A DNA stretch of 32,000 nt from Sinorhizobium meliloti (GTDB lineage Bacteria > Pseudomonadota > Alphaproteobacteria > Rhizobiales > Rhizobiaceae), in NCBI RefSeq assembly GCF_017876815.1, contig NZ_JAGIOS010000003.1:1170001-1202000 (forward strand), given 5' to 3'. The position numbers and the translations under genes were made by a program. How positions within the stretch are numbered: the first letter of the stretch is position 1; each line of letters starts with the position of its first letter. Of this stretch, positions 5,051 through 32,000 are shown in pieces. The notes below the pieces were generated by a model. That model saw only the letters and a list, made by a program, of their open reading frames with translations. It was not told the origin of the DNA and did no database searches.

Positions 5051-5316
5051 ACACAACACGGACCAGTTGCCGGTCGGCGGCCCGCTTGCGGAGTCGAAGC
5101 GCCATGGACGTGCTGCGCCGCAGCTATTAGACTCCTTCGGATCATACGCGGAAGCAATGGTTACCGCTGGCGGCCTGCTGGTCCCTCGCGCTATCCTCAG
5201 CATCCGCAAGGTCACGTCGACCATGATCCCAGGACTGACTGCGGCGGCCGTGTTACTCGCGTCGATCAGGTGAGTGAACAAGTCGCGGCTAGCTCAACCA
5301 CGCTGCTGGAGGATTG

Positions 5317-6366
5317 ATGAACACTCTTGCTCCCCGTCTCACGGACCTCGCTCACGGTGGCGGTTGCGGCTGCAAACTCGCGCCCTCCGTTCTACAGCAG
5401 CTTCTTGCCACTCAACCGGCTGCCCGACCTTTTGCCCAGCTCCTCGTCGGCAACGACATGGCCGATGATGCCGCCGTATGGCAGGTGGACGACAACACCT
5501 GCGTGATTGCCACCACCGATTTCTTCATGCCGATCGTCGACGATCCGCGAGACTTCGGGCGGATCGCCGCGACCAATGCTATTTCCGATGTTTATGCCAT
5601 GGGTGGAAAGCCGATCCTGGCATTGGCGATCGTCGGAATGCCGATCAACAAGCTCGATTCGACAACGATCGCGAAGATTCTCGAGGGCGGCGCTTCGATC
5701 TGCGCCGAGGCGGGCATTCCCGTCGCCGGCGGCCATTCCATCGATTCCGTCGAGCCGATTTACGGCCTCGCCGTCATCGGCCTCTGTCACCCGAGCGAGG
5801 TTCGCCGCAATGGCGGCGTAAAAGCCGGAGACGCGCTCATCCTGACCAAGGGGATTGGCGTCGGCATCTATTCGGCAGCAATTAAGAAGAACGCGCTGCC
5901 GGCCGGCTGTTACGAGGAAATGATCGGCTCCACGACGCTGCTCAACCGCATCGGCGCGGACCTCGCCGCCGATCCCGATGTCCATGCGATGACCGATGTC
6001 ACCGGTTTCGGAGTCCTCGGACACGGACTTGAGATGGCCCGTGCGTCTCAGCTTTCCCTCACCCTGAGCCTTCCCGCGATTCCCTTCTTGTCACAAGCTT
6101 ACATGCTTGCCGAACAGGGTTTCATCACGGGTGCGTCGGGGCGCAACTGGGCAAGCTACGGCGCCGACGTCGTGCTTCCCGACGACCTCCCGGACTGGCA
6201 GCGACTGCTGCTTGCCGACCCGCAGACCTCGGGCGGTCTGCTGGTCGCATGTGCGCCGGAAAAGGCTGGCGCATTGGTCGAGAGTATCCGCCTCGCGGGT
6301 TACCCGCTTGCGGGCATTGTCGGAACCGCGGAAGCAGGCGCGGCTCAGATCAACGTGATTTCCTGA
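5317..6366 (+). CDS. selD: Selenide, water dikinase (selenophosphate synthetase), Cys-type
   Basis: The N-terminal [16 protein letters not shown] motif is the SelD glycine-rich loop, with Cys rather than Sec. The body is PurM/AIR-synthase-like. GGAGGA lies just upstream of the ATG at 5317; the ORF track begins at the TTG at 5314. Confidence 0.9.
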
Positions 6367-12374: not shown

Positions 12375-14375
12375 TCAAGAGCCGGCGCGATAGAATTTGA
12401 AGTCCGGACGCCCCACCGGGGACGAGTCTCTTCCCTCATCTGCCTCAGGAACGTGCCCTTCGTAAAGATCGAGCCTGTGCGGGTTAACCCGGCGCACGTC
12501 GCCATGCCGGAGCGTCACTCCCTGACGATCGAAGAATTCCAGGATCTCGATCGCCACCTTTCTACCGTTGTTGACACGGTCGCGGAAGAGACCTGCGGAA
12601 AATTCACCCCGCTCGGCATTGGCCGCGACTTGCCTGATGATTGCGACCATTTCCGCTGTCGTCTGACGGGTGAAGAAATGGTCATGCCGAATCTGGTCGA
12701 CGCGGCCGAGCCGTGCACAAAGTTTGAGGATGCGGCGTATCTCTCGCTCGTCTACGCCCAGCGTTTCGGCGAAATCGCGGACTCGAGGCGGACGGAATCT
12801 CTCCTCGCCTTCCAGATGCGGAAGGATTCGTGCATAGAGCTCCTCCTCCTTCTCGCTCAACCGGACCTCGTGACCCGGCAATCGGACGAAGGCGCCTTCG
12901 AGCACCAGGCGCCCGCCCGTCTGTTCGGTCCTAAGCGCAACCAGAAAGGCCGGCGGAGGAAGTCGTGGCGTGACCTGCAGCCGAAGGCGCTCGCGACCGA
13001 TCCCCTGCAGATCGGGGTTCTCCACATGAAAGGCGCTCAATACGCGCTGGACCTCGTCGGAAAATGCGACTCGCTGGCGCTTCGACAGCGCATGGCGCAC
13101 CGCCAGGCCCTCGATGAGTTCGGCCGAGGCAAACATGAGCGCGTTCTGCAGTTCCGGCTCGGACAGGGCCCGGTCGCGTGCAAAGACGTCAAGATCGACA
13201 AGAAATGGCGGAACATCCAGCAATGCCGCAAGCGCTTCGCCAGCATGGGACAGAGATGCGGCTTTCAAGAAGCTCAGCCGCTGGGGAGAGCGCCGCTTGC
13301 GCAGGGGCGCCCGCAGATCCAGGAGCCGTCCTCCACCGATCGTGCGCCGGGCTGAAACGTCGCGCAGTATGAACCGGTCGCCGACAGCAGCCGCGATCGG
13401 ACGGTCGAGCACGAGTTGAACCCGCCGCCGCTCGCCCGGCAACAGCGGTCCCTCGAGCGGCACGATACGAACACCGGTCTCGGCGCTCGCGTGGTGAAAG
13501 CGGGCCGAAAACCATTCCCCGATCGGCTTCGTCTCACTTTCAAGCACAGAAAGATCCGCGTCGAGCCTGTCGCTCGGCGCGTGCAGATGGGGATCGACCA
13601 CCATGTCGCCTCGGGTGATTGCGTTCTTCGAGATCCCCTCGCCCGCAAGGTTGAGTGCACAGCGTTGCCCGGCAAAGCCGCGCTCGGCCCTCTGGTTCTG
13701 AGCATGTATGGAACGTACGCGCGCAGCGCGACCCGCTGGCGAGACCGTCACCTGGTCGCCCACGCCGACGGACCCTGAAAGCACGGTTCCAGTGACCACG
13801 GTTCCGGCGCCCGAGAGCGTGAAGCTTCGATCGACGGCGAGCCGGAAACGGCCACCGGCAGTCGATGCCACGGTCGCACGCTCGGCAGCCGCCAGGCGTG
13901 CCTTCAACAATTCAATCCCCTGCCCCGCCGCCGCAGAGACGGGAAGTATCTCCGCATCGCGGAGGCTCGTCGACGAAAGCACCGCTCCTATTTCATCCGT
14001 CAGGCTCTCGAGGCGGTCAGGATCGGCAAGGTCTGCTTTTGTGATCGCGACCAGTCCGCGGCTGACGCCGAGCAGATCGAGGATCGCGAGATGTTCGAGC
14101 GTCTGGGGTTTGATGCCATCGTCTGCCGCAACGACCAGCATGGCATAGTCGATGCCGCCCGCGCCGGCGAGCATGGTATGAATGAAGCGCTCGTGACCGG
14201 GGACGTCGACAAATCCGGTAACTGCGTCCTTTGCAAACCGGGCATAGGCAAAGCCGAGATCGATGGTGATGCCGCGCGCCTTTTCTTCCTTGAGGCGATC
14301 GGTGTCGACACCGGTCAGTGCCTTGACGAGCGTCGTCTTGCCATGATCGATATGCCCGGCCGTGCCGACGATCAT
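12375..14375 (-). CDS. selB: Selenocysteine-specific translation elongation factor
   Basis: GTPase motifs [17 protein letters not shown] and TKADL, EF-Tu-like domains II/III, and a long C-terminal winged-helix extension (666 aa). The last ~20 codons are read from the tRNA-Sec relic and island junction. Confidence 0.92.
12395..12434 (-). repeat. Relic 5' half of a second tRNA-Sec (att-like partial copy)
   Basis: The minus strand GGAAGAGACTCGTCCCCGGTGGGGCGTCCGGACTTCAAAT aligns without gaps to nt 1-40 of the intact selC (34/40 identical). Identity ends immediately after the anticodon loop. The following sequence (TCTATCGC) cannot form the 3' anticodon stem. Confidence 0.8.
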
Positions 14376-15166
14376 GGCGCCCGCCTTGAAAGCGGCTCTT
14401 GCGCCCGACGTTCCGCTTCCTGGATCTCCGCCGGCGAAAGGCTGTCACGAACCGGTCCCATGAAGGGCTTTGCCAGGGTGCTGCCGCCTTCCGTCGCCCG
14501 GATCAGCCAGACCAAGGCAGTCACACCATTGCGTATCGTGCCCGCCCCCATATGGCAGGCCGCTCCCAGCATGGCCTGGGCGTCTGCGTCGCCCCTCTCT
14601 GCAGCCTTCAGCCACCAGTAGACGGCCTTTTGCGCATCGCGTTCGACACCGAGTGCGTTGTGGTGGAGCATGCCGAGCCGCGTCATCGAGGACGCGATGC
14701 CGGCCTCGGCGGCACATTCCGCCCAGCGTCGCGCCTCGAGCGGGTCGGCCGTCATGATCTCGCCTTCCAGCAGCAGCCAGCTCAACATGTCCTGGGCCGG
14801 CGCGTCGCCCTTTTCAGCGGCGCGTCGATAATATTCGGCTGCGATGCCGTAGTCGGCATCGGTGCCGGCGAGCCCTTGCATGTGCAGGGCGGCATAGTTG
14901 CGTTGCCCGACGGGATCCCCGGCTTCGGCCGCCAGGCGCAGCCATTTGCACGCCAGTTCTCGATTCTCCGGCACCCCGAGCCCTTCTGCGAAGCAGGCGC
15001 CGATATTGTTCTGCGCCCGCGCGACGCCGGCACGCGCCAGAGGCTCCCAGATGCGCAGCGCCGACCCGTAGTCGCCGGCTTGGGCGCGTGCCAGGGCCTC
15101 GGCCATCGGATCGGCCACAGGCGCCGTCTGGGGCTTATTGCCTCGAAGGCGTTCAAGCCACCGCAT
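14372..15166 (-). CDS. Sel1-like repeat (SLR/TPR-like) protein, cytoplasmic, embedded between selA and selB
   Basis: About six SLR units ([47 protein letters not shown]..., [24 protein letters not shown]..., [24 protein letters not shown]..., [25 protein letters not shown]...). No signal peptide. The ATG at 15166 overlaps the selA 3' end by 14 nt, and its stop overlaps the selB ATG (ATGA at 14372..14375). The longer track ORF (to 15325) would overlap selA extensively. Confidence 0.8.
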
Positions 15167-16553
15167 CGCCGCTACCCTCGGACAGGGTTTTGAGGAATTC
15201 CGCCTCATCGGACAGACAGCGCAGGTCCAGAACCAGCGCACCATCCCGCAGGCGCCCCAGGATCGGGCGGGACAGAGACCGGAACAGAGCTGCGAGCGCT
15301 TCGAGTGCGCTCCCGCTCGACCCAACGATCCTCAGGCCGGCGCTCGGGATCGTGTCTACGGGAAGCGCCCCGGAGCCTATCTGGCTCGAACAGCTGCAGA
15401 CCTCGACAGCGTAACCGCTCGGCGCCAGCATCGCGCCGACCTGCGGCGCGAGCCGCTCCGCCTGTGCCCGCACTTCCGCTTGCACGCGGGACAGCATGAA
15501 AAGTGTCGGCAGGCGCGAAGCCAGCCGATCCGGATCGCGATAGAGCTTCAAGGTAGCAGCCGTCGCCGCGATACGGATCTTGTCGACACGCAGCGCCCGC
15601 TTCAGCGGATTGCGGTTGATCTCGGCGATCAGGTCCCTGCGCCCGACGATGAAACCCGCCTGCGGACCGCCCAGCAGCTTGTCGCCGGAAAAGGTGACCA
15701 GATCGGCTCCTTCGGCGACTGCCTCTCGCACCGTCGGCTCCCTGCCGAGACCATAACGCGACAGGTCGACCAGGCTGCCCGAACCGAGATCGTTGAGAAG
15801 CACCACACCTCTTTCATGGGCGATTGCCGCAAGCTCGGCACCCGGGACCTCCGCGGTGAAGCCCTCGATCCTGTAATTCGACGTATGGACCTTGAGGATC
15901 AAAGCCGTCTCAGGCCCGATCGCCTTGACGTAGTCCTTCGCGTGGGTGCGGTTGGTCGTGCCCACTTCGACCAGATCGACGCCGGCGCGCTCCATGATGT
16001 CCGGCATGCGGAAAGCGCCGCCGATCTCGATCAATTCACCCCGCGAAACGATCGCCTGACGCCCGGCACCGACCGAGTTGAGAGCGATCAGGACAGCCGC
16101 GGCATTGTTGTTGACGACGGTGGCATCCTCCGCTCCCGTCAGCTCGCACAGCAGTTCCCGCAAATGGCTGTCGCGTTCGCCGCGCCCACCGGAATCGAGA
16201 TCGAATTCAAGCGCGGCCGCTTCGCGCATTGCATCGACGGCGGCATCGACCGCCTCCTGCGCAAGCAGCGCCCGGCCGAGATTGGTATGAAGCACCGTCC
16301 CCGTCAGATTGAACAGCGGGCGAAGGTTCGAGCGGCTGCGGTCATCGAGCCGGCTCAGCAGAGCGGCAACAATGCCATCCTTGCCTGGCAGCGCCCCACC
16401 GCTCCGCACGGCAAGGCGGACTTCGCCCAGTACTTTGCGCAGTTCGTCCGTCACCACGGCGCGGCCATGCTGCTCCACAAGCGGCGACACGGCCGCCGCG
16501 TTCAGCATCTGGTCGACGGAGGGCAAGGCACGAAGATCGACAGGTCCCGACAT
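15153..16553 (-). CDS. selA: L-seryl-tRNA(Sec) selenium transferase
   Basis: 466 aa with the PLP-lysine context [13 protein letters not shown]. The N-terminal tRNA-binding region is LPSVDQMLN. The start lies 4 nt after the fdhE stop. Confidence 0.92.
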
Positions 16554-18203: not shown

Positions 18204-19173
18204 CAGGCGTCCTCCCTGCGGCTCCGGCGCTATCGACGAGCCTTTCCGCACTCTCTTCGTCTTCCGGCTGCACACGATTGGCCCGGCCGAAGACGCCGTG
18301 GAGAATTGCCCCGGCGGCCACGAGACCCATTGCGGCGAGACCTGTGTATTTGGTCACACCCTTCCATGCCTGGACCACGGCGGAAATCTTCGGATCGTCG
18401 GGCAGATCGGAGTAGATGTGCGGCTTGTCGTTGTGATGCAGCACATACATCACATGCGTGCCGCCTACGCCCGGCGGATCGTAAAGGCCTGCATTCGTAT
18501 AACCGCGGGATTTGAGATCGGCGATGCGGTGTTCCGCATGCTTCTTCATATCCTCCTTCGTGCCGAACACGATCGCGTGGGTCGGACAGGCCTTGGCACA
18601 GGCCGGTCCCTGGCCGACGGCGACCCGATCGGAACAGAGGGTGCATTTGTAGGCGCGGTGATCGACTTTCGAGATGCGCGGAATGTTGAAGGGACAGCCC
18701 TTTATGCAATAGCCGCAGCCAATGCAGTTCTCGTGAACGAAATCCACGATGCCGTTCGAATACTGGACGATTGCGCCCGGCGCCGGGCAGGCTTTCAGGC
18801 ACCCCGGATCGGCGCAGTGCATGCAGCCGTCCTTGCGGATGAGCCATTCGAGATTGTCGGTCTCGGGATTGACCCACTCGGTAAAGCGCATGAGCGTGAA
18901 CATGTCCTCGGTGAGGTCATGGGGGTTGGTATAGTAGCCGACGTTTTCGCCGATCCCCGGATGCGTATCGTTCCACTCGACGCACGCAGACTGGCAGGCC
19001 TTGCAGCCGATGCACTTTGAGACGTCGATCAGCTTGGCGACGGGCGTGAGCTGCCGCTCGGGCGGCGGCAGCTCGGTGGTTGCCGAGCGGCGTACGAGAT
19101 CCCGCTCGGTAAGGTTGCTTTCCATCGGCTGGACCGGCGGATTGCTGACGGCGGTGCGAGGACTGTCCATCAT
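18181..19173 (-). CDS. fdoH: Formate dehydrogenase-N/O type, iron-sulfur beta subunit
   Basis: Four ferredoxin-type clusters: [58 protein letters not shown]. There is a C-terminal membrane anchor. The ATG overlaps the fdoG TGA (ATGA). Confidence 0.92.
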
Positions 19174-22100
19174 ACTCTAGCCTCCTCGGGCGCCGTCGAT
19201 GATTCGATATTGACCAGGAATGCTTTGTATTCCGGCGTTTCGATATTGGCGTCACCGACGAAAGGCGCGAGCGAGTTGGGGCCGAGGCCCTTTTTCGCCG
19301 AGCCGGTGAACCCCCAGTGAAGCGGAATGCCCACCACATGGACCGGCTTGCCGTCGCACATCAGCGGCCGGATGCGCTTGGTCACCACCGCCTTCGCCTT
19401 GACCGAACCACGCTTCGACCACACCCGGACCCAGCCGCCGTTTTCGATATTCTTCTCCTCTGCCAGTTCCTCGGAGATCTCGACGAAGAATTCCGGCTGA
19501 AGCGCGGAATTCACGCGGTTATGCTTGGTCCAGTAGTGGAAGTGTTCCGTCAGCCGGTAGGAAGTAGCCGCGTAAGGGAACTCGTCCGACAGCCCCATCT
19601 GCGCCACGTCCGTCTGAAAGACGCGGCTGACCGGGTTGCCCCGCATCTTCGGATTGAAGACGTTGGCGACGGGGGATTCGAAAGGCTCCATATGGGCCGG
19701 GAACGGCCCGTCCCGCATCAAACCGCGTGAAAACAGGCGTGCAGTCCCCTCCTGGTTCATGATGAACGGGCCGATTTCGTCCGGCTTTGCCGTAGGAGCA
19801 ATATCGGGCACATCGTAGCCCGCCCACTTCGTGCCATCCCACTCGAGCAGCTTACGTGAGGGATCCCACGGCTTGCCCTGCAAATCGGCCGAAGCACGAT
19901 TGTAGAGCGTGCGGCGATTAAGCGGCCAGGCGAATGACCAGCCGAGATAAGCGCCAGTGTCGTCCGGATCGTGGTTGTCGCGGCGGGCCATATTGTTGCC
20001 CTGCTCGTTGAAGTTGCCGGAATAGATCCAGCAACCGCACATGGTCGAACCGTCGTCCCTGAGTTGCGAGAAGTTCAGGATCTGCTTGCCGGCCGCGACC
20101 TGCACCTTCATCGGGTTGGCAGGATCCATGAGGTCCGTCAGTGCCCGACCGTTGATTTCCTTCGCCAGCTCCTCCGGCGTAGGTTCGTTCGGATCGGCAT
20201 AGTCCCATGACAAGTTCAGGATCGGATCGGGGAACGCGCCACCCTCGTTGCGATACATCTCCTTCATCCTGAGGAATATCTGGGCGACGATGTAAGTGTC
20301 GTGCTTTGCTTCGCCGGGGGGTGTTCCACCTGCCCAGTGCCACTGCAACCATCGGCCCGAGTTTGTCAGCGAGCCCTCTTCCTCCGCAAAGCAGGTCGTG
20401 GGCAGCTGGAACACCTCGGTCTGGATGGATGCGGTATCGACAGGGTTGAAGTCGCCATGGTTTTCCCAGAACCGTGCGGTCTCTGTGTCGAGCGGGTCCA
20501 TCGTGACGAGCCACTTCAGGTTCGACAGCGCCTTGGTGTTCTTGTCCCGGTTCGGGAAGGCAAGAAGTGGGTTGAAGCCCTGGCAGATGTAGCCATTGAC
20601 CTTGCCGGCATACATCAGCTCGAACACGCGAAGCACATCATAGGCCGGCACGTCGAGCTTGGAGAGGTAATTGAAGGCCCAGTCGTTGTCGATCCGGGCG
20701 GCATCCCCCCACATGGCCTTCTGGAAGGAGACCATGAACTTCCTGTAGTTCTGCCAGTAACTTGTCTGCCCTGGACGCAATGGTTTGAACTGGCGTGTCG
20801 ACATATAGGTCGTGAAATCCACGTCCTTTTCCGTCGGCATCGTCAGATACCCCGTGAGCAGATGCGACATTAGACCGAGGTCAGTCAGTCCCTGGATGTT
20901 GGAGTGGCCGCGAAGCGCGTTCATGCCGCCGCCGCGCACGCCGATATTGCCGAGGATGAGCTGCAGCATGGCCATGGCGCGGATGTTTTGCGAACCGCTG
21001 GAATGCTGGGTCCAGCCGAGCGCATACATCGACGTCATCGTCTTTGTCGGAGACGAGCATTCCGAGATCATCTCGGCAACCTTGAGGAACTTGTCCTTGG
21101 GCGTGCCGCAGATCCGTTCCACCATTTCCGGCGTATAGGGGGCGAGGTGCGCCTTCAGCAGATTCCAGACACAACGCGGGTGCTGGAGCGCCGGGTCAGT
21201 CACGACGAAGCCGTCGTCGCCGAGGACATAGTCCCACGTCGACTTGTCATAGTCGCGCTTTTCCGCGTCGTAGCCCGTGAAGAGGCCGTCCTGGTAGCCG
21301 AAGCCGTCCTTGACGAGATAGGAGGCGTTGGTGAACGCCTTCATATAGTCCCACTGCACCTTGTCGTTGTCGATGCAATACTTCATCACCCCGTTGAGGA
21401 AGGCGATGTCGGTTCCCTGACGGATGGGAGCGTAATAGTCGGATACGGACGCGGTGCGGGTATAGCGCGGATCGACCACGATCAGCTTCGCGCCCCGCGT
21501 GGCCTTCGCCTCGGTCACCCATTTGAAGCCGCAGGGATGCGCTTCGGCCGCATTGCCGCCCATGACGACTACGAGGTCGGTATTTTTGATGTCGGTCCAG
21601 GAGTTGGTCATCGCTCCACGGCCAAATGTTGGGCCCAAACTGGACACCGTAGGGCCGTGTCAGACGCGCGCCTGATTATCGAAACCGACTATTCCCAGAG
21701 CCTTGGCGAATTTGAAGGTCGCCCAAGCCGTTTCATTGGTGGTCGCCGACGCGGCGAGCATGCCGACCGTCGTCCAGCGATTGACCGGAACGCCTGCGGC
21801 ATTCGCCGCGACGAAATTGGCGTCGCGGTCATCCTTCATCAACCGTGCGATGCGGTCGAAAGCATCCTCCCAGGAGATACGCTCGAACTTATCCGAGCCC
21901 GGCTTGCGGTGCATCGGATACTGGAGACGGGTCGGGGACTTCACGAAGTCCTTGAGCGCCGCCCCCTTGGGACAGAGCGTACCGCGGTTGGTCGGATGAT
22001 CCGCATCGCCTTCGATGTGAATGATGTCGGCAGCCTCACCCTTGCGGAGGTCGCCCTTCGAATAGATGATGACGCCACAGGCGACGGAACAGTAGGGACA

Positions 22101-22259
22101 GGTGTTGCGCGTTTCGGTGGTCGTCGTCAGCTTGTGAGGCCGGACATGCGCGACGACCGCCGCCTCAGCCTCACCAAACCCCATCGCACCGAGTGACGTT
22201 GCCGCAGCCCCTGCTCCAGCCAGCTTCAAAAAGCTGCGCCGTGAGAGGTCTACATTCAT
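19170..22259 (-). CDS. fdoG: Formate dehydrogenase-N/O type, molybdopterin alpha subunit, selenocysteine-containing (in-frame UGA at 21660..21662)
   Basis: Track ORFs 21660..22274 and 19170..21647 share one frame and are joined by a single TGA. The junction reads [30 protein letters not shown], the conserved FdnG/FdoG active-site context. Tat leader [20 protein letters not shown]; the ATG at 22259 has GGAGG 8 nt upstream. The N-terminal 4Fe-4S motif is CPYCSVACG. Confidence 0.93.
21617..21659 (-). promoter_or_regulatory. Candidate SECIS stem-loop immediately 3' of the fdoG UGA
   Basis: The mRNA reads UGA-CACGGCCCUACGGUGUCCAGUUUGGGCCCAACAUUUGGCCGUG. The outer 7-bp stem is CACGGCC/GGCCGUG. An alternative inner hairpin pairs GGCCC/GGGCC around a small apical stem, ACGG-UGU-CC(A)GU. 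This was folded by eye only. Confidence 0.5.
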
Positions 22260-22417
22260 GGGAACAGCCTCCATCTCGTGTCAGCAACAATGGAGTCTAT
22301 GCCTCGACACCAGCAAGTCAAGGTGGAGTGATATCGTCAAAGAAAGCCGCCGCAGCGAGCGGAGGCGGGCATCCAGAGAGAGGACGCGCCTGTGTTGCGC
22401 GTCAGTTGCCGAATAAT

Positions 22418-24256: not shown

Positions 24257-25462
24257 GTGACGGAAACGATCACAGGGATTCTTTCGATGACGCGACACCT
24301 AAGCAGCCTCGCTTTCATGGAGAATTTTTCCAGTAAGCTCGAAATGGCACTGAACAACTTGAGCATGGCGCAGTTCCCCCCGAACGCGCGTCGCACAATG
24401 CGCAAGTTCACCTCTACCGAAGTTGCCACCCTGCTGGGCGTAACCGAGGCCTATATCCGCCAGGTTGCCGCCAAGGAACAGGGCCCTGAGCCCGAAATCG
24501 CCAACGGCCGGCGCTTCTACACGCTCGAGCAGGTTCTTGAACTACGTATGGCTCTTGCGGCAAACGGCCGGAAGAAATGGATGAATCCCCGCCGGACAGG
24601 CGATGAGCAATGCCAGATCGTTGCGGTCACCAACTTCAAGGGCGGCTCCAGCAAGACCTCTACCACAATCCATCTCGGTCACTATCTGGCACTCAAGGGC
24701 TATCGCGTGCTGGCGGTCGATCTCGACCCCCAAGCATCTCTCACCGCGCTCCATGGTAGCCTGCCGGAATTCGATTACCGTGGCGGTGATACACTTTTCT
24801 CAGCCATTCGTTTCGACGATCCCGTCCCGACGAAATCCATCATCCACAAGACCCACATCGTTGGTTTCGACGTCATCTGTGCCGGCCTCGAACTGACCGA
24901 GTTCGAGACGGCCGTCGCACTCGAGATGCGGCGGTCAGCAGGAACCGGTTTCTTGCTTCGCGTTTCTCAAGCTCTGGAGCAGGTCGCCGATGACTACGAC
25001 TTCGTCCTTATGGACTCGGCTCCGTCGCTGAACTTCCTGACACTTTCGTCGCTGACCGCCGCGACTGGGGTCATCATCCCGGTTCCGGCACATATGCTGG
25101 ATGTGGACTCGACCGCAAAGTTTTTGGAGCTTGCCGGGTCGTACATGCAGATCCTGAATGAGGTGGGGACCGCCGCTCAATGGGACTTCGCCAAGTTCCT
25201 GATCACAAAGTTCGAGCCGAACGATCATCCGCAAGCGAATATGTCCGCGCTGATGAGACAGGTGTTCGGCGAGGATCTGCTCCTCAACTCCGTCATCAAG
25301 TCGACCGCGGTGGCCGATGCTCTGACGTGGAAGCAGAGCCTTTACGAGGTTCAGAGGTCCCGATTTTCGGCGCCGAAAACCTACGACCGCGCCATCGAGT
25401 CGATCAATGCTGCCAATGCTGAACTCGAGGGCCTCTTCTGGAAGGCATGGGGGAGAGAATGA
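24257..25462 (+). CDS. repA: Plasmid partitioning ATPase RepA (ParA family)
   Basis: Deviant Walker A KGGSSKTSTT, VLAVDLDPQASLT, and an N-terminal HTH-like segment. The start is uncertain (GTG at 24257 or ATG at 24287). The stop overlaps the repB ATG. Confidence 0.9.
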   Translation: MTETITGILSMTRHLSSLAFMENFSSKLEMALNNLSMAQFPPNARRTMRKFTSTEVATLLGVTEAYIRQVAAKEQGPEPEIANGRRFYTLEQVLELRMALAANGRKKWMNPRRTGDEQCQIVAVTNFKGGSSKTSTTIHLGHYLALKGYRVLAVDLDPQASLTALHGSLPEFDYRGGDTLFSAIRFDDPVPTKSIIHKTHIVGFDVICAGLELTEFETAVALEMRRSAGTGFLLRVSQALEQVADDYDFVLMDSAPSLNFLTLSSLTAATGVIIPVPAHMLDVDSTAKFLELAGSYMQILNEVGTAAQWDFAKFLITKFEPNDHPQANMSALMRQVFGEDLLLNSVIKSTAVADALTWKQSLYEVQRSRFSAPKTYDRAIESINAANAELEGLFWKAWGRE

Positions 25463-26460
25463 GCCGCAAGGATTCCAAGGGCCTTTTTGCCAATGTCCTG
25501 GGACAGCTGGAAAATTCTGCAGAGAAGGGCGGGATGCAGCGGTCGACATCGCCACATCTTCTCAAAGTTGCAGCCGGCGTCCGTCAGATGCAGGAACGCA
25601 GCGAACTTGCCGAACGCCTTCTCAAGGATGGTGGCCAGATCGTCGAGATCGATCCAGACGAGATCATGGAATCGGCCATCCGGGATCGCTTTGATTCCGG
25701 CTACAGCGAAGCCGGTATTGCGGATTTGCTCGAGTCGATGCGCGAGCATGGACAGAGTACTCCTGGCTTGGTCCGCCCGGTTCGAGGGGCCGCAAGGCCG
25801 TTTCAGATCGTATTTGGCCGGCGCCGGCTTGCCGCTGCCAAACTCCTCGGCATCAAGTTCAAGGCAATCGCCCGGGAACTTAGCGACGAAGATGCGATCG
25901 TTCTCCAAGGGGAAGAGAACAGCAACCGCAAGGACCTGTCCTTCATCGAACGATGCCTTTTTGCGCAATCGCAGGAGGCTGCCGGCTATCGCCGCGACGT
26001 GATCTGCAAGTCCCTGAGCACCGGCAGGTCGCATATCTCCGAAATGATCCGGATAGCGGCAGCATTGCCGCGCGAGATCCTGATGCAGATTGGTCCGGCT
26101 CCTGAAATCGGACGGCGCAGGTGGATCGAGTTCGAAGTGCGCTGGGCGGCTCACCGGGAGCCCGCGAAGGTGGCGCAGTTGGTTCTGGAGCAAGACCAGA
26201 TTCAAGCCTCTTCCAGCGAGCTACGCTTCGCTGCGGTTTTTGAAGCGCTTACCAAGGCGGATGTAAAGGCTGCAGCGTCTTCCACAACCGATCTGATCTC
26301 TCATGGCCTCGTGCTTGGCCAGATCCAACACGGCAAGTCGGCTGCGAAGCTGACATTCAACAAGTCTGTGCCTTCAGGCTTTGTCGATTTCATTGCAGGT
26401 CAGATCGAAAGCCTGCACGACCAGTTCATGCAAAAGCAGAATTCGAAACAAGGAGACTAA
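25459..26460 (+). CDS. repB: Plasmid partitioning protein RepB (ParB family)
   Basis: ParB-box region HGQSTPGLVRPV...FQIVFGRRRLAAAKLLG, with an HTH further on. The ATG at 25459 overlaps the repA TGA (ATGA) and follows GGGAGAG. The track alternative is the ATG at 25447. Confidence 0.88.
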   Translation: MSRKDSKGLFANVLGQLENSAEKGGMQRSTSPHLLKVAAGVRQMQERSELAERLLKDGGQIVEIDPDEIMESAIRDRFDSGYSEAGIADLLESMREHGQSTPGLVRPVRGAARPFQIVFGRRRLAAAKLLGIKFKAIARELSDEDAIVLQGEENSNRKDLSFIERCLFAQSQEAAGYRRDVICKSLSTGRSHISEMIRIAAALPREILMQIGPAPEIGRRRWIEFEVRWAAHREPAKVAQLVLEQDQIQASSSELRFAAVFEALTKADVKAAASSTTDLISHGLVLGQIQHGKSAAKLTFNKSVPSGFVDFIAGQIESLHDQFMQKQNSKQGD

Positions 26461-26465
26461 CCCGC

Positions 26466-26503
26466 AAAAGAAAAAGGCCCCCAACGAACAAGCCGTGGAA
26501 GCC
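26466..26503 (-). terminator. Rho-independent terminator of the candidate ctRNA
   Basis: Minus-strand RNA GGCUUCCACGGCUUGUUCGUUGGGGGCC forms 7 bp (including 2 G-U) plus 3 bp with one bulged U and a 7-nt loop. It is followed by UUUUUCUUUU. There is no U-tract on the plus strand. Confidence 0.65.
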
Positions 26504-26520
26504 TTCCTCAGATTTGTAGC
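26466..26520 (-). ncRNA. Candidate repABC counter-transcribed RNA (ctRNA / inc-alpha) in the repB-repC intergenic region
   Basis: Minus-strand promoter-like TTGACT (26551..26556), 17-nt spacer, GATTCT (26528..26533). About 55 nt downstream is a strand-specific intrinsic terminator. Position, size and orientation match what is known for repABC operons. Confidence 0.6.
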
Positions 26521-26615
26521 AAGATCGAGAATCGCATTTCCACGAATCACAGTCAAGAGTCCTTGGCACCGTTTTTGGTGAGCTGCTTTCTTTTGCCTAA
26601 TCGAAGGTGAAGGAA

Positions 26616-27821
26616 ATGGAAAGTGGAAGTGTGACGACGCCCTTTGGGCGGCGGTCGATGACGCTTGCCTTGTTGGCAGGCCAGTTCATCTCCCGCGACA
26701 TCGAACCTGGAAAGTCGGTCGACAAGTGGAAACTGTTTCGCTCGCTTTGTGCGGCCAAACGCCGGCTCGGCATCAGCGATCGGACGCTGGCCGTTCTGAA
26801 CGCGCTGTTGAGCTTCTATCCGGAGAACACGCTAAGCGGAGAGACCAGTCTGGTCGTCTTTCCCTCGAACGTTCAGCTGTCACTGAGAGCTCATGGGATG
26901 GCCGAGGCTACGCTCAGAAGGCATCTGGCCGCCCTCGTCGATGCAGGCCTGGTCGCTCGCAAGGACAGTCCGAACGGCAAGCGCTATGCACGCAAGACTC
27001 GCGATGGAGCGATCGGCACAGCATTCGGCTTTTCGCTCGCACCGCTTTTGGCCCGCTCCGGCGAAATAGAGCGACTCGCGGCCGAAGCCGAGGCTGATCG
27101 GATCGAGCTGCAGCGGCTACGCGAGCGACTGACGCTCTGCCGCAGAGACATCGCCAAGTTGATAGACGTGGTGCTCGAAGAACTGCCCGGCGACTGGACG
27201 TCTCTGCAGGAAGATTTCCGAAGCCTCGTCCAGGCTATACCGAGGACGCCCGATATCGCTGATCTCACCGCTTTGGTAGAGGCGTTCGAAACGCTGCGCG
27301 AACAGGTGGCTAACCAATTGCAAACGCGCATAAAACTCCAAGAGATGAGCGGCAATCCCGATCAAACTGAGCGGCACAAACAGGAATCAAAACCCGAATC
27401 TATTATTGAACTTGAACGTTGCCCTCGGAATGAGCGGTCAGACGGCCAGGCCGGTGAACCGGCTCACGAGGCAAAAAGGGCCTTTCCGCTGGGAATGGTA
27501 CTGAAAGCCTGCCCGGAAATCATGAACTACGGTCCTGACGGTGCGGTGAGAAGTTGGCGCGACCTTATGATCGCTGCGGTTACGGTACGATCTATGCTTG
27601 GCGTTTACCCCTCGGCCTATCAGGAGGCCTGCGAGGTCATGGGACCAGAAAACGCCGGGGTCGCCGTTGCCTGCATCCTGGAGAGGGCAGGGCATATCAA
27701 CTCTGCTGGCGGGTATCTGCGCGATCTGACCGGCAAAGCGCGGCAAGGGAAATTCTCGCTCGGCCCGATGCTGATGGCGTTGCTCAGGGCGAATGGCTTC
27801 GACAGGCGGGGGGTGTTGTGA
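26616..27821 (+). CDS. repC: Replication initiator RepC
   Basis: RepC signature region RTLAVLNALLSFYPE...VVFPSNVQLSLRAHGMAEATLRRHLAALVDAGLVARKDSPNGKRYA. The ATG at 26616 follows AAGGTGAAGGA. The track start is the GTG at 26607. Confidence 0.9.
   Translation: MESGSVTTPFGRRSMTLALLAGQFISRDIEPGKSVDKWKLFRSLCAAKRRLGISDRTLAVLNALLSFYPENTLSGETSLVVFPSNVQLSLRAHGMAEATLRRHLAALVDAGLVARKDSPNGKRYARKTRDGAIGTAFGFSLAPLLARSGEIERLAAEAEADRIELQRLRERLTLCRRDIAKLIDVVLEELPGDWTSLQEDFRSLVQAIPRTPDIADLTALVEAFETLREQVANQLQTRIKLQEMSGNPDQTERHKQESKPESIIELERCPRNERSDGQAGEPAHEAKRAFPLGMVLKACPEIMNYGPDGAVRSWRDLMIAAVTVRSMLGVYPSAYQEACEVMGPENAGVAVACILERAGHINSAGGYLRDLTGKARQGKFSLGPMLMALLRANGFDRRGVL
27305..27420. other. Candidate oriV (A+T-rich segment inside repC)
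   Basis: This is locally the most AT-rich stretch of repC (taaccaattgcaaacgcgcataaaactccaagag...caggaatcaaaacccgaatctattattgaacttgaacgtt). In studied repABC replicons the origin lies within repC in such a region. Confidence 0.35.
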
Positions 27822-28123: not shown

Positions 28124-28540
28124 ATGACAACACAGAAAAAGGTTCTCTACACCGGCAAGACTCACACGACCGGTGGCCGTGAAGGGTTCGCCCGCAGCGA
28201 CGATGCCCAACTGGAGGTCAGGCTTTCGCCGCCGGGCAGCGGCAAAGCCGGAACCAATCCCGAGCAGCTCTTCGCCGCCGGCTGGTCAGCCTGTTTTATC
28301 GGCGCACTAGGTCTAGCCGCGGCGAAGCACAAGTTGTCGCTCCCGGCCGAAACGGCAGTCGATGCTGAAGTCGATCTCGCCAAATCGGAAGGCGGCTTTT
28401 TTCTTCAAGCCCGGCTTGCCGTCAGCCTCCCCGGCATCGACGCGGACCTTGCGCGATCGCTCATCGCCGAAGCGCATCAGACCTGCCCCTATTCAAAGGC
28501 AACGCGGGGGAACATCGAGGTCGATCTGACTCTCGCCTGA
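28124..28540 (+). CDS. ohr: Organic hydroperoxide resistance protein (OsmC/Ohr family)
   Basis: 138 aa from the ATG at 28124, with ACGGAG upstream. Both catalytic Cys contexts are present (AGWSACF and HQTCPYS), along with the TGGREG motif. Confidence 0.88.
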   Translation: MTTQKKVLYTGKTHTTGGREGFARSDDAQLEVRLSPPGSGKAGTNPEQLFAAGWSACFIGALGLAAAKHKLSLPAETAVDAEVDLAKSEGGFFLQARLAVSLPGIDADLARSLIAEAHQTCPYSKATRGNIEVDLTLA

Positions 28541-28567
28541 CCGCGTTCTTGATCCAAGGAGGTTTCT

Positions 28568-28693
28568 ATGAAGCGCCTCATAGTCGGCATACTGACATTC
28601 GCCGTTGTTGCAGCGCCTTGCGTCTATGACATATTTTCCGCGGAACCATCGGCGCTGGCCGGCCTCCTCGCGGCGTCTGTGCTGCCACTTTAA
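28568..28693 (+). CDS. Small hydrophobic 41-aa ORF (not in the supplied track)
   Basis: AAGGAGG (28556..28562) lies 5 nt upstream of the ATG at 28568. Product MKRLIVGILTFAVVAAPCVYDIFSAEPSALAGLLAASVLPL, stop TAA at 28691..28693. It starts 28 nt after the ohr stop. Confidence 0.4.
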   Translation: MKRLIVGILTFAVVAAPCVYDIFSAEPSALAGLLAASVLPL

Positions 28694-28748
28694 GGCAGGG
28701 GAAGGCCGCCAATTCGATGAGGGATCGGCTGCGAGACCAGCGGATCCT

Positions 28749-29405
28749 TCACACGTCCAGCGGTCGATTGGATCCGGGCCTCATTGCAGTCTGGAAGATG
28801 GCCCAGCGGCTTTCGAACAGGCGAAGACTGTCGGCGGCGTCCGGACTTTCGGACAGGCCGAGACGGACACGGTTATTTGCGCCTTCCAGCAAATCGATGA
28901 GGACGTGGCAAATCTCTATGGCAGGTCCCGGCACGACCAGGCCGGCGGCCTGAGCCGATATGATCGCCTGCACAATGGGTTCCAGTGCAGCACTCGACCA
29001 TACCGCCAACCTTTCCCGCAATGGCAGCGAAAACACGGCCTCGGCGGTAACCGACAGATAGAAAGCGGAATAATCACGGTCCGTGCCGAAGCGGAAATAC
29101 CTGAAAGCCACATCGCGCAACGCTGCGAGAGGTGCATCACCTTGTCCCGCTGCTTCGGCAAGCGTCTTGCGGAAGCGCACGAGGTCACGTTCGACCACGG
29201 CTTCCAGAAGCGCCTGCCTGTTGGGATATCGCCGATAAAGCGTGTGTTTCGAGATTCCGAGCTCCGCGGCAATCTCTTCCATGGAGGCGTTCGCAATCCC
29301 CTTGCGGGCAAAGGTCGAGCGGGCGCTATCCAGAAGACGACTGGTCAGAGCCTCGGCCTCTTCCCGAGTGGGACGTCCGCCGCCACGTCTGCGAACTCTA
29401 ATCAT
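28749..29405 (-). CDS. TetR/AcrR-family transcriptional regulator
   Basis: HTH ASMEEIAAELGISKHTLYRRYPNRQALLEAV. The start is taken at the ATG at 29405 (MIRVRRRGGGRPTREE...); the track ORF extends to 29456. It is divergent from the ABC-F gene. Confidence 0.88.
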   Translation of the reverse strand: MIRVRRRGGGRPTREEAEALTSRLLDSARSTFARKGIANASMEEIAAELGISKHTLYRRYPNRQALLEAVVERDLVRFRKTLAEAAGQGDAPLAALRDVAFRYFRFGTDRDYSAFYLSVTAEAVFSLPLRERLAVWSSAALEPIVQAIISAQAAGLVVPGPAIEICHVLIDLLEGANNRVRLGLSESPDAADSLRLFESRWAIFQTAMRPGSNRPLDV

Positions 29406-29468
29406 GGATGTCCGACGCCGGCCGATGGGCGGGATGGACAACGCCATTGCCCGCACCGCTGATTGCTG

Positions 29469-29494
29469 ATAACAGCACGATACCGTGCTGTTAT
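29469..29494. promoter_or_regulatory. Perfect inverted repeat, candidate TetR operator
   Basis: ATAACAGCACG-atac-CGTGCTGTTAT (11-bp arms, 4-bp spacer) lies in the 110-bp TetR/ABC-F divergent intergenic region. Confidence 0.6.
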
Positions 29495-29515
29495 TAACAT
29501 TGCAACAGGTTCGCC

Positions 29516-31105
29516 ATGCCCTCCATCACTCTCTCCGCTCTCTCCTGGTCGAAACCCGACGGGGGGCATGTTTTTACCGATCTCGACCTGGCGTTTGGTC
29601 CGGAGCGGACGGGGCTGGTTGGAAGAAACGGCATAGGAAAAACGAGCGTGCTCAACATTCTTGCCGGTACATTAAGGCCTTCCTCCGGCACGGTTGCCAT
29701 CCAGGGACGTGTCGCGCTGGCGAGGCAGATACTTCGGGCCGGCGCCGATGAAACCATCGCCGATGTGTTCGGTGTGACGCAGGCGGTTGCGGTGTTACGG
29801 CGCGCCGAAAAAGGCGAAGCGAGTCTTGAAGAACTCGAAACTGCGGATTGGACAGTGGAAGAGCGGATAGTTTCCGCCCTTGTCCGGCTTGGACTGGAGG
29901 CGCGGGCGGATACGCTCCTGAAGCAGCTCTCCGGGGGCCAGCGCACGCGGGCGGTGCTCGCGGCGGCAATATTCTCCGAGCCGGACTTCCTCCTTCTCGA
30001 CGAGCCGACCAACAATCTGGATCGTGACGGCAGACGGGCGGTTATCGACCTTCTTTCCGGCTGGCGCAGCGGGGCAATTGTCGTTAGCCACGATCGTGAA
30101 CTGCTCGAAGAAATGGACGCGATTATCGAACTGAGCTCGGTCGGGACAAAGCGCTACGGCGGGGGCTGGAGTTCCTATCAGGCGGCGAGGGCGGTTGAGC
30201 TGGAAGCGGCGCAACAAAGCCTCGCACATGCACAGAAGACCGCCGACGAAATCGACCGCAAGGCACGTGCCTTGGCAGAGCGGCTGGACAAGCGTGGCGC
30301 GTCTGGTACCCGAAAAGCGGCAAAGGGCGACATGCCGCGGATTCTAATGGGCCGGCGCAAGAGCAATGCGGAAGAAAGCCGGGGCAAGGGTGTGGAACTC
30401 GCCGAGCGACAGCGCGCAGCCGCGCTCGACGCCGTCACAGCGGCCAAAGCGCGGATCGAGGTGCTGCAGCCGTTCTCTATCCGTCTTCCGCGAACCGATC
30501 TTCCCGCCGGCCGGCAAGTCCTCGCGTTTGACCGCGTTACGGCGGGCTACGATCCCGCCCGTCCGGTCATTCGGGATCTATCCTTCTCGCTTGTCGGCCC
30601 GCGGCGCCTTTCGGTCACCGGCCCCAACGGGGCGGGCAAAACGAGTCTTCTGAAGGTAGTCACCGGAGAATTGCGACCCTTTAACGGAACCGTTTCCGTA
30701 AATGTTCCCTTCTCTCTGCTGGACCAGAGCGTCAGTATTCTGGAGCGCGGCGAGACGATCCTCGATAATTTCAAGCGGCTCAATCCCGGTGCCAGCGACA
30801 ACGCCTGCCGGGCGGCCTTGGCCAGCTTTCGCTTCCGCGCGGATGCGGCCTTGCAAAGGGTGGAGACGTTGAGCGGCGGGCAGGTGCTGCGCGCCGGCCT
30901 TGCCTGCGCACTCGGCGGTTCCGATCCCCCATCGCTGCTCATTCTCGACGAGCCGACCAACCATCTGGATATCGACTCCATCGAGGCGGTCGAAGCTGGG
31001 CTGCTCGCCTATGACGGCGCACTCGTCGTCGTCAGCCACGACGAGACATTCCTTGCAAACATCGGGATAGGCACGCGTCTGGAGCTTTCGACCTCCTGGG
31101 GCTGA
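29516..31105 (+). CDS. ABC-F family ATPase (tandem ABC domains, no membrane domain)
   Basis: Domain 1: GRNGIGKTS, LSGGQRTR, LLLDEPTNNLD. Domain 2: GPNGAGKTS, LSGGQVLR, LILDEPTNHLD. A long Arg/Lys/Ala-rich inter-domain linker is present. Confidence 0.9.
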   Translation: MPSITLSALSWSKPDGGHVFTDLDLAFGPERTGLVGRNGIGKTSVLNILAGTLRPSSGTVAIQGRVALARQILRAGADETIADVFGVTQAVAVLRRAEKGEASLEELETADWTVEERIVSALVRLGLEARADTLLKQLSGGQRTRAVLAAAIFSEPDFLLLDEPTNNLDRDGRRAVIDLLSGWRSGAIVVSHDRELLEEMDAIIELSSVGTKRYGGGWSSYQAARAVELEAAQQSLAHAQKTADEIDRKARALAERLDKRGASGTRKAAKGDMPRILMGRRKSNAEESRGKGVELAERQRAAALDAVTAAKARIEVLQPFSIRLPRTDLPAGRQVLAFDRVTAGYDPARPVIRDLSFSLVGPRRLSVTGPNGAGKTSLLKVVTGELRPFNGTVSVNVPFSLLDQSVSILERGETILDNFKRLNPGASDNACRAALASFRFRADAALQRVETLSGGQVLRAGLACALGGSDPPSLLILDEPTNHLDIDSIEAVEAGLLAYDGALVVVSHDETFLANIGIGTRLELSTSWG

Positions 31106-31326
31106 TGCCGATCGAGATAATCGATGGGCACCCAATTCAGGGCACACTCAAAGCACAGCGCCTCGTCTGTGATGGGGCTGGCGCCGGCCATGAACCCCGC
31201 GGTCGAGTGCGGCAATTCCACCGGCTAACCGACCCTCTTCAGAGGCATTCCATCACGTTAAACGACCATGGCTGCGGTCATGCCCGTGTCGGTTGGCGCT
31301 CCGAGATATAGTTCATGCGTTGCTCC

Positions 31327-32000
31327 TTACGGGATCAAAAGCAGTTTTCCGGTGGTTGCACGGCTTGCCATCGCGGCATGGGCGCCGGCGGCGTCGGCAA
31401 GGCGATAGGTTTCGCCGATCGTCACCGTGATCGATCCGTCCTCGATCCAGTCGAAAAGCTGCTTGGTGCGATCGAGAAGGAGTTCGTGCGTGTGGATGTG
31501 GTCCATGAACGTTGCGTAGCCGATCTTGATGCTCTTCGGCGGTTCATGATCTCGAGCGGTCCAGGCCCGCCGAGCACTGGTCCGTACCAGCAGAAGGTAC
31601 CGGACCGGCGAAGCGCTTCGATCGACCCCTTGAAGGTCTTGGGACCGGAGCCATCGTAAACGACGTTCACGCCCTCGCCGCCAGTCAAGCGCAGGACTTC
31701 GTCGGCAAACCTTCCGTCGGTATCGACGATGACGTGCTCGGCGCCAGCCTTTCTGGCGATCGCGACTTTGTCTTCGGACGATACGCGTCCGATTACTCGG
31801 CCACCCCTTAGCCTTATAATCTGTGTCAGCAGCAGGCCGACCCCGCCGGCCGCCGCATGAACAAGGGCGATGTCGCCCGGCTGCACTGGATAAAAATCCG
31901 TCGCGAAGTGACTGGCTGTGAGCCCCTGCATCATAATGGATGCGGCCGTTCGGTCGTCCAGGGTATCGGGAATTTTCACGAGGGAGGCTGCCGGTATCGA
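31327..32000 (-). pseudogene. NADPH:quinone oxidoreductase (zeta-crystallin/MDR family), apparent frameshift, 5' end beyond the window
   Basis: ORF 31422..31979 carries the NAD(P)-binding AAGGVGLLLTQI and ...GTFCWYGPVLGGPGPLEIM, then degenerates. A different frame continues with the expected C-terminus EPPKSIKIGYATFMDHIHTHELLLDRTKQLFDWIEDGSITVTIGETYRLADAAGAHAAMASRATTGKLLLIP and TAA at 31327..31329. The frame change is near 31538..31552. Upstream the reading frame stays open to the window end. Confidence 0.7.

Follow-up and report, generated by a model that had tools for sequence, protein, structure and literature searches.

A conserved divergent TetR/ABC-F gene pair and its predicted palindromic operator on megaplasmid pSymA of Sinorhizobium meliloti

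Tn10 TetR/tetA is the paradigm of a divergent repressor-operator unit, and MphR(A), a drug-sensing regulator of the TetR family, controls a macrolide phosphotransferase operon. To our knowledge, nearly all known ABC-F resistance factors come from Gram-positive bacteria and antibiotic producers, in which ribosome-stalling leaders switch them on. The locus considered here pairs a regulator of the former kind with an ABC-F gene. It lies in a 32,000-nucleotide stretch of Sinorhizobium meliloti DNA (contig NZ_JAGIOS010000003.1, positions 1,170,001 to 1,202,000; called the window below) that is 100% identical to the megaplasmid pSymA of strain SM11. A tetR-family repressor gene (28749-29405, minus strand, 218 aa plus stop; SMa2387 in strain Rm1021) is transcribed away from an ABC-F gene assigned here to subfamily BAF2 (29516-31105, plus strand, 529 aa; SMa2385 in Rm1021), and a palindrome, O1, is found in the intergenic region between them (29406-29515). 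The reading favoured here, to which a probability of roughly 65% is given, is a one-component switch in which TetR on O1 would repress both genes until a ligand releases it, upon which the ABC-F protein would act on the ribosome.

The arrangement resembles Tn10 TetR/tetA in its divergent regulator and target, its short shared control region, a dyad operator placed over the promoter of the regulator and, in most lineages, tandem operators (O1 and a second site, O2); derepression by a ligand is presumed here. It differs in that the target is a soluble ribosome-type ABC-F protein instead of an efflux pump, that the operator is a 26-bp 11-4-11 dyad of unrelated sequence, and that the repressor has no sequence relationship to TetR of Tn10 beyond the helix-turn-helix (HTH) of the family. 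As with MphR(A) and mph(A), a one-component sensor of the TetR family would couple a ribosome-targeting drug to the transcription of a resistance determinant, but no homology to MphR(A) beyond the family level was found.

The resistance ABC-Fs characterised so far depend for their induction on leader attenuation or on regulators of the WblC/WhiB7 type. The literature searched yielded no account of an ABC-F under TetR control, and as far as that literature shows, one-component transcriptional control of a ribosomal ABC-F would be the first of its kind. The nearest characterised relatives of BAF2 are the antibiotic resistance ABC-Fs (AREs) of the actinomycete subfamilies ARE5 and ARE4 (VarM, LmrC and TiaA; OleB, CarA, SrmB and TlrC), according to Murina 2019. 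The protein described here shares with them the lack of an arm domain and of a C-terminal extension as well as a long linker, whereas its hosts are Gram-negative and its predicted control runs through a TetR operator, not through leader attenuation or WblC. Taken singly, the two genes are unremarkable representatives of known superfamilies; what is new is their conserved pairing, its operator, and the handle which these provide on an orphan subfamily.

Operator O1 and its linkage to tetR

O1 occupies 29469-29494 and is assigned to no strand. Its arms (29469-29479 and 29484-29494) enclose a four-nucleotide spacer (29480-29483), and the sequence reads ATAACAGCACG-ATAC-CGTGCTGTTAT, a perfect 11-4-11 palindrome. 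This palindrome had been pointed out in a first-pass annotation and is borne out as a single copy: a search that tolerated three mismatches still gave one occurrence in the window, with zero expected from 100 dinucleotide shuffles. The central position ascribed to it at the time was wrong, as 63 nt separate O1 from the start codon of tetR and only 21 nt from that of the ABC-F gene. The symmetry is perfect in the allele of the window, compared with matches at 10/11 positions in Rm1021 and a 10-6-10 form in S. medicae. Perfect symmetry is thus specific to the allele, and the conserved part is the core CAGCACG...CGTGC. The tetR start used for these distances, the ATG at 29405, is favoured by the N-termini of orthologues and by GenBank record CP050559, in which the gene is annotated with this start (the 218-aa version); the frame from 28749 to 29456 is merely the maximal open reading frame (ORF). 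A BLAST search with the 36-nt operator region against all plasmids, the chromosome not being searched, revealed no second copy of O1 in Sinorhizobium replicons, the "2 places" reported being the two strands of the palindrome.

A scan of a genome collection with the TetR alignment yielded 78 loci, of which 56 carry a TetR at least 47% identical to that of the window, and an ABC-F orthologue is divergently adjacent to tetR in 53 of these 56. The pair is distributed over four alphaproteobacterial orders and the Planctomycetes. The former are represented by Sinorhizobium, Rhizobium, Neorhizobium, Pararhizobium, Mycoplana, Phyllobacterium, Pseudaminobacter, Aquabacter, Ancylobacter, Bosea, Microvirga, Kaistia, Azospirillum, Sphingomonas and Caulobacteraceae (Rhizobiaceae, Phyllobacteriaceae and Xanthobacteraceae being among the families), the latter by Pirellulaceae, Rhodopirellula, Novipirellula and Planctomycetaceae. 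Clustering of all ORFs from 50 loci gave no third conserved gene family beside the pair, and no permease gene is conserved nearby. The tetR and ABC-F genes are a conserved, self-contained module of two genes.

When the intergenic regions of 50 loci and the window were oriented to have the ABC-F gene on the plus strand, a match to the dyad was present in all 51 (44 distinct sequences), 15-27 nt upstream of the ABC-F ATG and in every case nearer to that codon than to tetR. The consensus is ATAACAGCACG-ATAT-CGTGCCGTTAT. Its arms carry 1.50 bits of information per position compared with 0.39-0.42 in adjacent intergenic DNA, a difference of about fourfold, and at least 7 of the 11 symmetric positions are retained at 50 of the 51 sites. 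The sites score 20-44 bits with a position weight matrix (PWM) derived from them. At four BAF2 loci without tetR (Shinella, Neorhizobium galegae, Novosphingobium and Rhizobium sp.; about 9 kb each, ABC-F 57-61% identical) the best score is at most 1 bit. Conversely, three loci with tetR but no intact ABC-F gene (L015, L025 and L070) have kept O1, with scores of 34-43 bits, some 100 bp upstream of tetR. O1 therefore segregates with tetR and not with the ABC-F gene.

Two copies of tetR and operator were seen in some genomes: L015 and L020 lie about 20 kb apart on the same contig of a metagenome-assembled genome, and L030 and L070 both belong to Pseudaminobacter soli. One copy stands beside an intact ABC-F gene and the other beside a 39-aa ABC-F remnant or none, which suggests duplication and decay of the module.

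The position of O1 relative to the tetR promoter can be given with some precision. A transcription start site (TSS) of SMa2387 with high coverage was mapped in Rm1021, where the 40-nt window upstream corresponds to pSymA 1348310-1348349 (plus strand), and was assigned to the RpoD-like "Motif 1", characterised by a conserved TTG and a downstream A (Schlueter 2013, PMC3616915). In Rm1021 these 40 nt read ACCTATTGCAATGTTAAAAACAGCACGGTACCGTGCTGTT, followed by the start base A. Alignment of the Rm1021 sequence with the window carries the promoter elements over, all on the minus strand: the start (pSymA 1348350 in Rm1021) falls by homology on 29470, the -10 hexamer TATCGT on 29477-29482, centrally within O1, and the -35 hexamer TTGCAA on 29500-29505, with a 17-nt spacer (29483-29499). 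Within this -35 element, the triplet CAA, which reads TTG on the tetR strand, is kept from locus to locus. O1 would accordingly extend over the tetR promoter from -24 to +2, by position the classic layout of autorepression. The -35 box of tetR falls between O1 and the ABC-F start codon, so that the two transcription units are tightly interleaved, in which they resemble Tn10 tet.

On the ABC-F side, the short distance from O1 to the ATG (21 nt here, 15-27 nt across loci) implies that the -10 box lies in or upstream of O1. A candidate -35 element is TTGCCC (29447-29452, plus strand), which precedes TAACAG (29470-29475) in the left arm of O1 by 17 nt. In alignments, this hexamer coincides with the right half of O2 (TTGCGT) of other genera. 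O2 (AAAACAGCACgg..CCGTTGCGTTTT) is a less symmetric second site on the tetR side of O1, at a distance of exactly 13 bp, found at 37 loci outside the Rhizobiaceae (L026-L062), of which Sinorhizobium retains only a remnant with a conserved CCATTGYCC block (29430-29455 in the window).

The proposal of the first-pass annotation that the palindrome is a TetR operator has thus gained support. O1 is conserved at all loci compared, follows tetR and overlaps the mapped tetR promoter, and the near-invariant core CAGCACG/CGTGC is matched by an invariant recognition helix, KHTxYRR. All of this is consistent with O1 behaving as the operator of the adjacent TetR, which would bind it.

The regulator and the ABC-F protein

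The two flanking genes are of the kinds originally named, a TetR-family gene and a transporter-less ABC-F gene. The regulator matches PF00440 with 53.5 bits (cut-off 24) over aa 24-70, which places the HTH at 29196-29336 on the minus strand. The alignment of orthologues shows a conserved N-terminal arm (GGRPT), an invariant recognition helix (K53-H-T-x-Y-R-R59) and good conservation of the C-terminal domain (W136, D171, LLEGANNR). An AlphaFold2 (AF2) model (pLDDT 91) has ten helices and the all-helical, two-domain TetR fold, and the top 50 Foldseek matches are all TetR-family structures with TM scores of 0.6-0.73, among them RutR and FrrA, sensors of metabolites and flavonoids. The best NCBIfam matches cover the N-terminus only. 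With 181 homologous proteins at E <= 1e-5, the regulator belongs to a tight orthologous family.

A sister clade of this family (L063-L082; the Sphingomonas sanguinis/paucimobilis group) is 38-43% identical and has the same recognition helix, KHTIYRR. It stands divergent to a resistance-nodulation-division (RND) efflux pump composed of an HlyD-type membrane fusion protein (MFP) and AcrB (e.g. L074:1-3875), with a related but distinct dyad, AAAAAGCAACG-N5-GTGCAATTAA (e.g. L074:3941-3966), in the manner of AcrR-type repressors of RND pumps. In the pair described here the pump is replaced by an ABC-F protein, and the half-site is ACAGCACG rather than AAGCAACG.

The ABC-F protein has two PF00005 stretches, i.e. 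tandem ABC nucleotide-binding domains (NBDs), and no membrane domain, and it is annotated as ABC-F. Its nearest solved relatives by sequence are all ABC-F proteins (ABCF1, YheS, EttA, YbiT and PoxtA). The AF2 model, built with 30 homologues (pLDDT 86), consists of two NBDs joined by a two-helix hairpin and nothing else. In Foldseek the whole chain is aligned with ribosome-bound PoxtA, EttA, Uup, VmlR2, YbiT and LsaA at a TM score of about 0.66. The Walker-B glutamates E163 (30002-30004) and E479 (30950-30952, both plus strand) are invariant among homologues, as are both LSGGQ motifs and both H-loops, and both ATPase sites are by these motifs predicted to be intact. The interdomain hairpin (aa 218-317; 30167-30466, plus strand) is equivalent in the model to the PtIM/ARD linker of other ABC-Fs, with helices at 218-269 and 275-317 and a nearly invariant tip, G271-D-x-P-R-I-L-x-G-x-x-K282 (30326-30361, plus strand). 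It is basic, with 21 K/R compared with 14 D/E. The span from NBD1 to NBD2, counted by hand, is 113 aa, compared with 75 in EttA, 78 in YdiF of B. subtilis and 102 in VmlR, and the linker is thus in the length range of AREs. The protein shares with EttA and YdiF the overall fold and the twin intact ATPase sites but differs from them in lacking an arm subdomain, in a linker longer by 35-38 aa, in having no ABC_tran_Xtn match and in being accessory and borne on a megaplasmid; nor does it have a C-terminal extension.

The assignment to BAF2 is made through the one labelled reference sequence used, NP_355935.2 of A. fabrum (Table S2 of Murina 2019), to which the protein of the window is 53% identical and collinear over its length, and with which it groups against YdiF in a neighbour-joining (NJ) tree. 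This supports placement of the TetR-linked ABC-F in BAF2 and not in a housekeeping subfamily. In the same tree, which has no bootstrap values and is of low weight, the TetR-linked alphaproteobacterial proteins form one clade and the TetR-less ones, including the A. fabrum reference, its sister clade. BAF2 is uncharacterised; together with BAF3 it was found to be strongly associated with ARE5 and was listed among the predicted novel resistance factors (Murina 2019). The same study reported that no sequence signature separates AREs from translation factors and took patchy presence to be a mark of AREs. A literature search for BAF2 together with ABCF gave no paper beyond it, and for SMa2385 and SMa2387 nothing beyond passing mentions was found.

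A second ABC-F gene in the window (1199-2821, minus strand) had likewise been noted and is confirmed as real and without a TetR neighbour; it lies outside the module. Its product is 91% identical to A. fabrum NP_356765.2, classed as YdiF in Murina 2019, contains PF12848 and passes the generic ABC-F model NF000355, which places it in YdiF. The specialised roles suggested for the two ABC-Fs are plausible, since one belongs to BAF2 and the other to YdiF. The table of Murina 2019 puts EttA, Uup and YheS on the chromosome of S. meliloti. With these three on the chromosome and YdiF on pSymA, the TetR-linked BAF2 protein is an accessory fifth paralogue and no replacement for a housekeeping factor.

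A ligand-responsive switch and its alternatives

In the proposed mechanism, TetR would bind O1 as a dimer or a pair of dimers. On O1, and on O2 where present, it would limit its own synthesis, since O1 covers the tetR promoter. As O1 ends 21 nt before the ABC-F ATG and the promoter of that gene should lie in it or just upstream, bound TetR would silence that gene as well. Both genes would be induced once a small molecule, bound in the conserved C-terminal pocket, frees TetR from the DNA. By analogy with solved ABC-Fs and from the similarity of the fold, the induced BAF2 protein would enter the ribosomal E site with its hairpin reaching towards the peptidyl-transferase centre, where it may relieve a stall induced by a drug or a sequence, or displace a ligand. 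The molecule that releases TetR from O1 would then be the likely physiological trigger of the ABC-F, and possibly its substrate.

Several results weigh against this switch. A consensus scan of 28500-31400 for sigma-70 promoters and terminators found nothing in the intergenic region, the tetR promoter being a consensus match too weak for such a scan to detect. Among the entries listed in the supplement of Schlueter 2013, SMa2385 has no mRNA TSS but only an antisense one. Transcripts from the tetR TSS are well represented under pooled conditions, which allows for no more than partial autorepression. At the protein level, the Pfam linker model PF12848 (ABC_tran_Xtn) does not match the ABC-F, the score against NF000355 is below threshold (339 bits, cut-off 380), and the curated ARE families (Vga, Msr, Lsa, Sal, OptrA, CplR and producer-type) are all far below their cut-offs. 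After NF000355, the sole full-length NCBIfam match in a single stretch is an actinomycete producer family, NF000171, at 223 bits against a cut-off of 800. The placement as a ribosome protection factor therefore rests on the fold and on the tree of Murina. Finally, the Foldseek neighbours of the TetR, all of them generic TetR folds, give no clue to its ligand.

For the trigger, a ribosome-targeting antibiotic is plausible but unproven. It is suggested because BAF2 stands beside ARE5 in the tree of Murina, because the linker has an ARE-like length and the distribution is accessory and plasmid-borne, and because the nearest TetR clade is divergent to an MFP and AcrB pump with a related dyad. A tentative extension, for which the odds are clearly less favourable than for the switch itself, would regard BAF2 proteins as inducible factors for target protection, by which Gram-negative bacteria of soil and water withstand a natural product that acts on the ribosome, with two alternative sensors: TetR and its operator in one clade, which includes the Planctomycetes, and a leader RNA or an upstream ORF (uORF) in the sister clade. 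If this extension is true, the TetR ligand would itself reveal which antibiotic belongs to an orphan ABC-F subfamily. The question of BAF2 function becomes approachable through the ligand in the tractable S. meliloti (SMa2387/SMa2385). Should the trigger be a clinical drug class, conjugative megaplasmids would form an environmental Gram-negative reservoir of such genes.

The same circuit may instead respond to a signal other than an antibiotic, namely an endogenous metabolite or one derived from plants or soil. BAF2 would in that case be a conditional translation factor for sequences that are hard to translate, with no resistance phenotype. Such a role would agree with that of the housekeeping ABC-Fs (EttA, YbiT, YheS, Uup and YfmR), which resolve intrinsic stalls, and also with the low scores of all ARE-specific NCBIfam models, with the lack of a signature separating AREs from translation factors (Murina 2019) and with the presence of RutR and FrrA among the structural neighbours of the TetR. 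This alternative is nevertheless judged rather unlikely. S. meliloti already encodes EttA, Uup, YheS and YdiF, and BAF2 is accessory and borne on a megaplasmid here, while Murina 2019 ties it to ARE5 and takes patchiness as a mark of AREs. The ARE length of the linker and the control of an RND drug pump by the sister TetR clade also argue against it.

A further explanation would see in the palindrome mainly an RNA hairpin with a stabilising or attenuating role in the 5' leader of the ABC-F transcript, and not a protein-binding DNA site. If transcribed, O1 would form an 11-bp stem, and the surrounding 71-nt region folds at -22 kcal/mol (z = -4.3). Characterised ARE ABC-F genes, such as MsrD, are usually under leader RNA attenuation, and arm positions co-vary (A4/T23 versus T4/A23), a pattern compatible with a hairpin and a dyad alike. 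The weight of the evidence makes this explanation very improbable all the same. O1 persists at tetR after loss of the ABC-F gene and is missing at BAF2 genes without tetR; on the ABC-F sense strand an A stands opposite a C at arm position 6/21 in 31 of the 51 loci; and O2 has the same half-site with no hairpin potential. The 15-27 nt between O1 and the ATG contain no conserved U-tract, terminator or leader ORF, nor is there room for one, and Rfam gave no match on 29300-29650 even at a permissive threshold. Since transcription of tetR begins at the edge of O1, the tetR transcript is without the hairpin. A mini-ORF at 29410-29472 (plus strand) was considered as a leader peptide and rejected, as conservation fails in S. 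medicae, where the region differs by a 3-nt indel and numerous substitutions, and as the mini-ORF lies in the 5' untranslated region of tetR on the opposite strand.

That TetR regulates only itself through O1, with the ABC-F gene independently expressed and its adjacency irrelevant for regulation, would suit the fact that the tetR promoter alone has been located experimentally, but is scarcely credible given that the divergent adjacency is kept over four alphaproteobacterial orders and a second phylum while other neighbours change, and that O1 is closer to the ABC-F ATG than to tetR at 51 of 51 loci.

Neighbouring genes and BAF2 genes without tetR

The pair sits just beyond repABC (24257-27821) and the gene of an Ohr-family organic hydroperoxide peroxiredoxin (28124-28540, plus strand; a paralogue of SMa2389), which lies between repC and tetR. 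The latter gene accompanies the pair in just 12 of 50 loci and is therefore outside the module. A reading of the locus as a defence system was dropped, since PADLOC returned generic ABC/AAA similarity (mad3, AriA, PtuA) and no match for the TetR. In the supplement entries listed by Schlueter 2013 (PMC3616915), asRNA_718 is an antisense TSS within SMa2385 at pSymA 1347706 of Rm1021 (plus strand) with a predicted RpoH1-type promoter. The quinone oxidoreductase gene 3' of the ABC-F gene (31327-32000, minus strand) has a 1-nt deletion near 31541 relative to strain RCAM1115 (CTTCGGC-GGTTC), which splits it into two frames in SM11, indicating a pseudogene or a sequencing error.

BAF2 genes without tetR, which also lack O1, have in common a leader of some 95 nt that follows a canonical CTTGAA-N17-CTAGAT promoter (L003:3520-3680, L004:3440-3600, L005:3390-3551, L006:3440-3600, L087:1470-1631 and L088:1475-1635). 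The leader contains a possible uORF (MDFNPIATPLCLAIRE...) overlapping the ABC-F start. RNAalifold, applied to the six sequences, which show little covariation and offer a lead only, predicted a 7-bp helix between CCAUGGA and UCCAUGG at the start of the ABC-F gene, by which the AUG of that gene would be sequestered. By its sequence, this leader may be an attenuation-type alternative to TetR control.

Elsewhere in the window, a formate dehydrogenase alpha subunit gene (19170-22274, minus strand) contains an in-frame TGA at 21660-21662, followed by CAC GGC CCT (V-U-H-G-P), which is a selenocysteine codon; selA (15153-16553), selB (12375-14375), a selD-like gene (5314-6366), fdhE and the gene of an Fe-S subunit are found in the same window. 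Near the YdiF-type ABC-F gene, a serralysin-like RTX metalloprotease is encoded at 3152-4807 (plus strand), with a Peptidase_M10 domain, RTX repeats and an M10 C-terminal domain.

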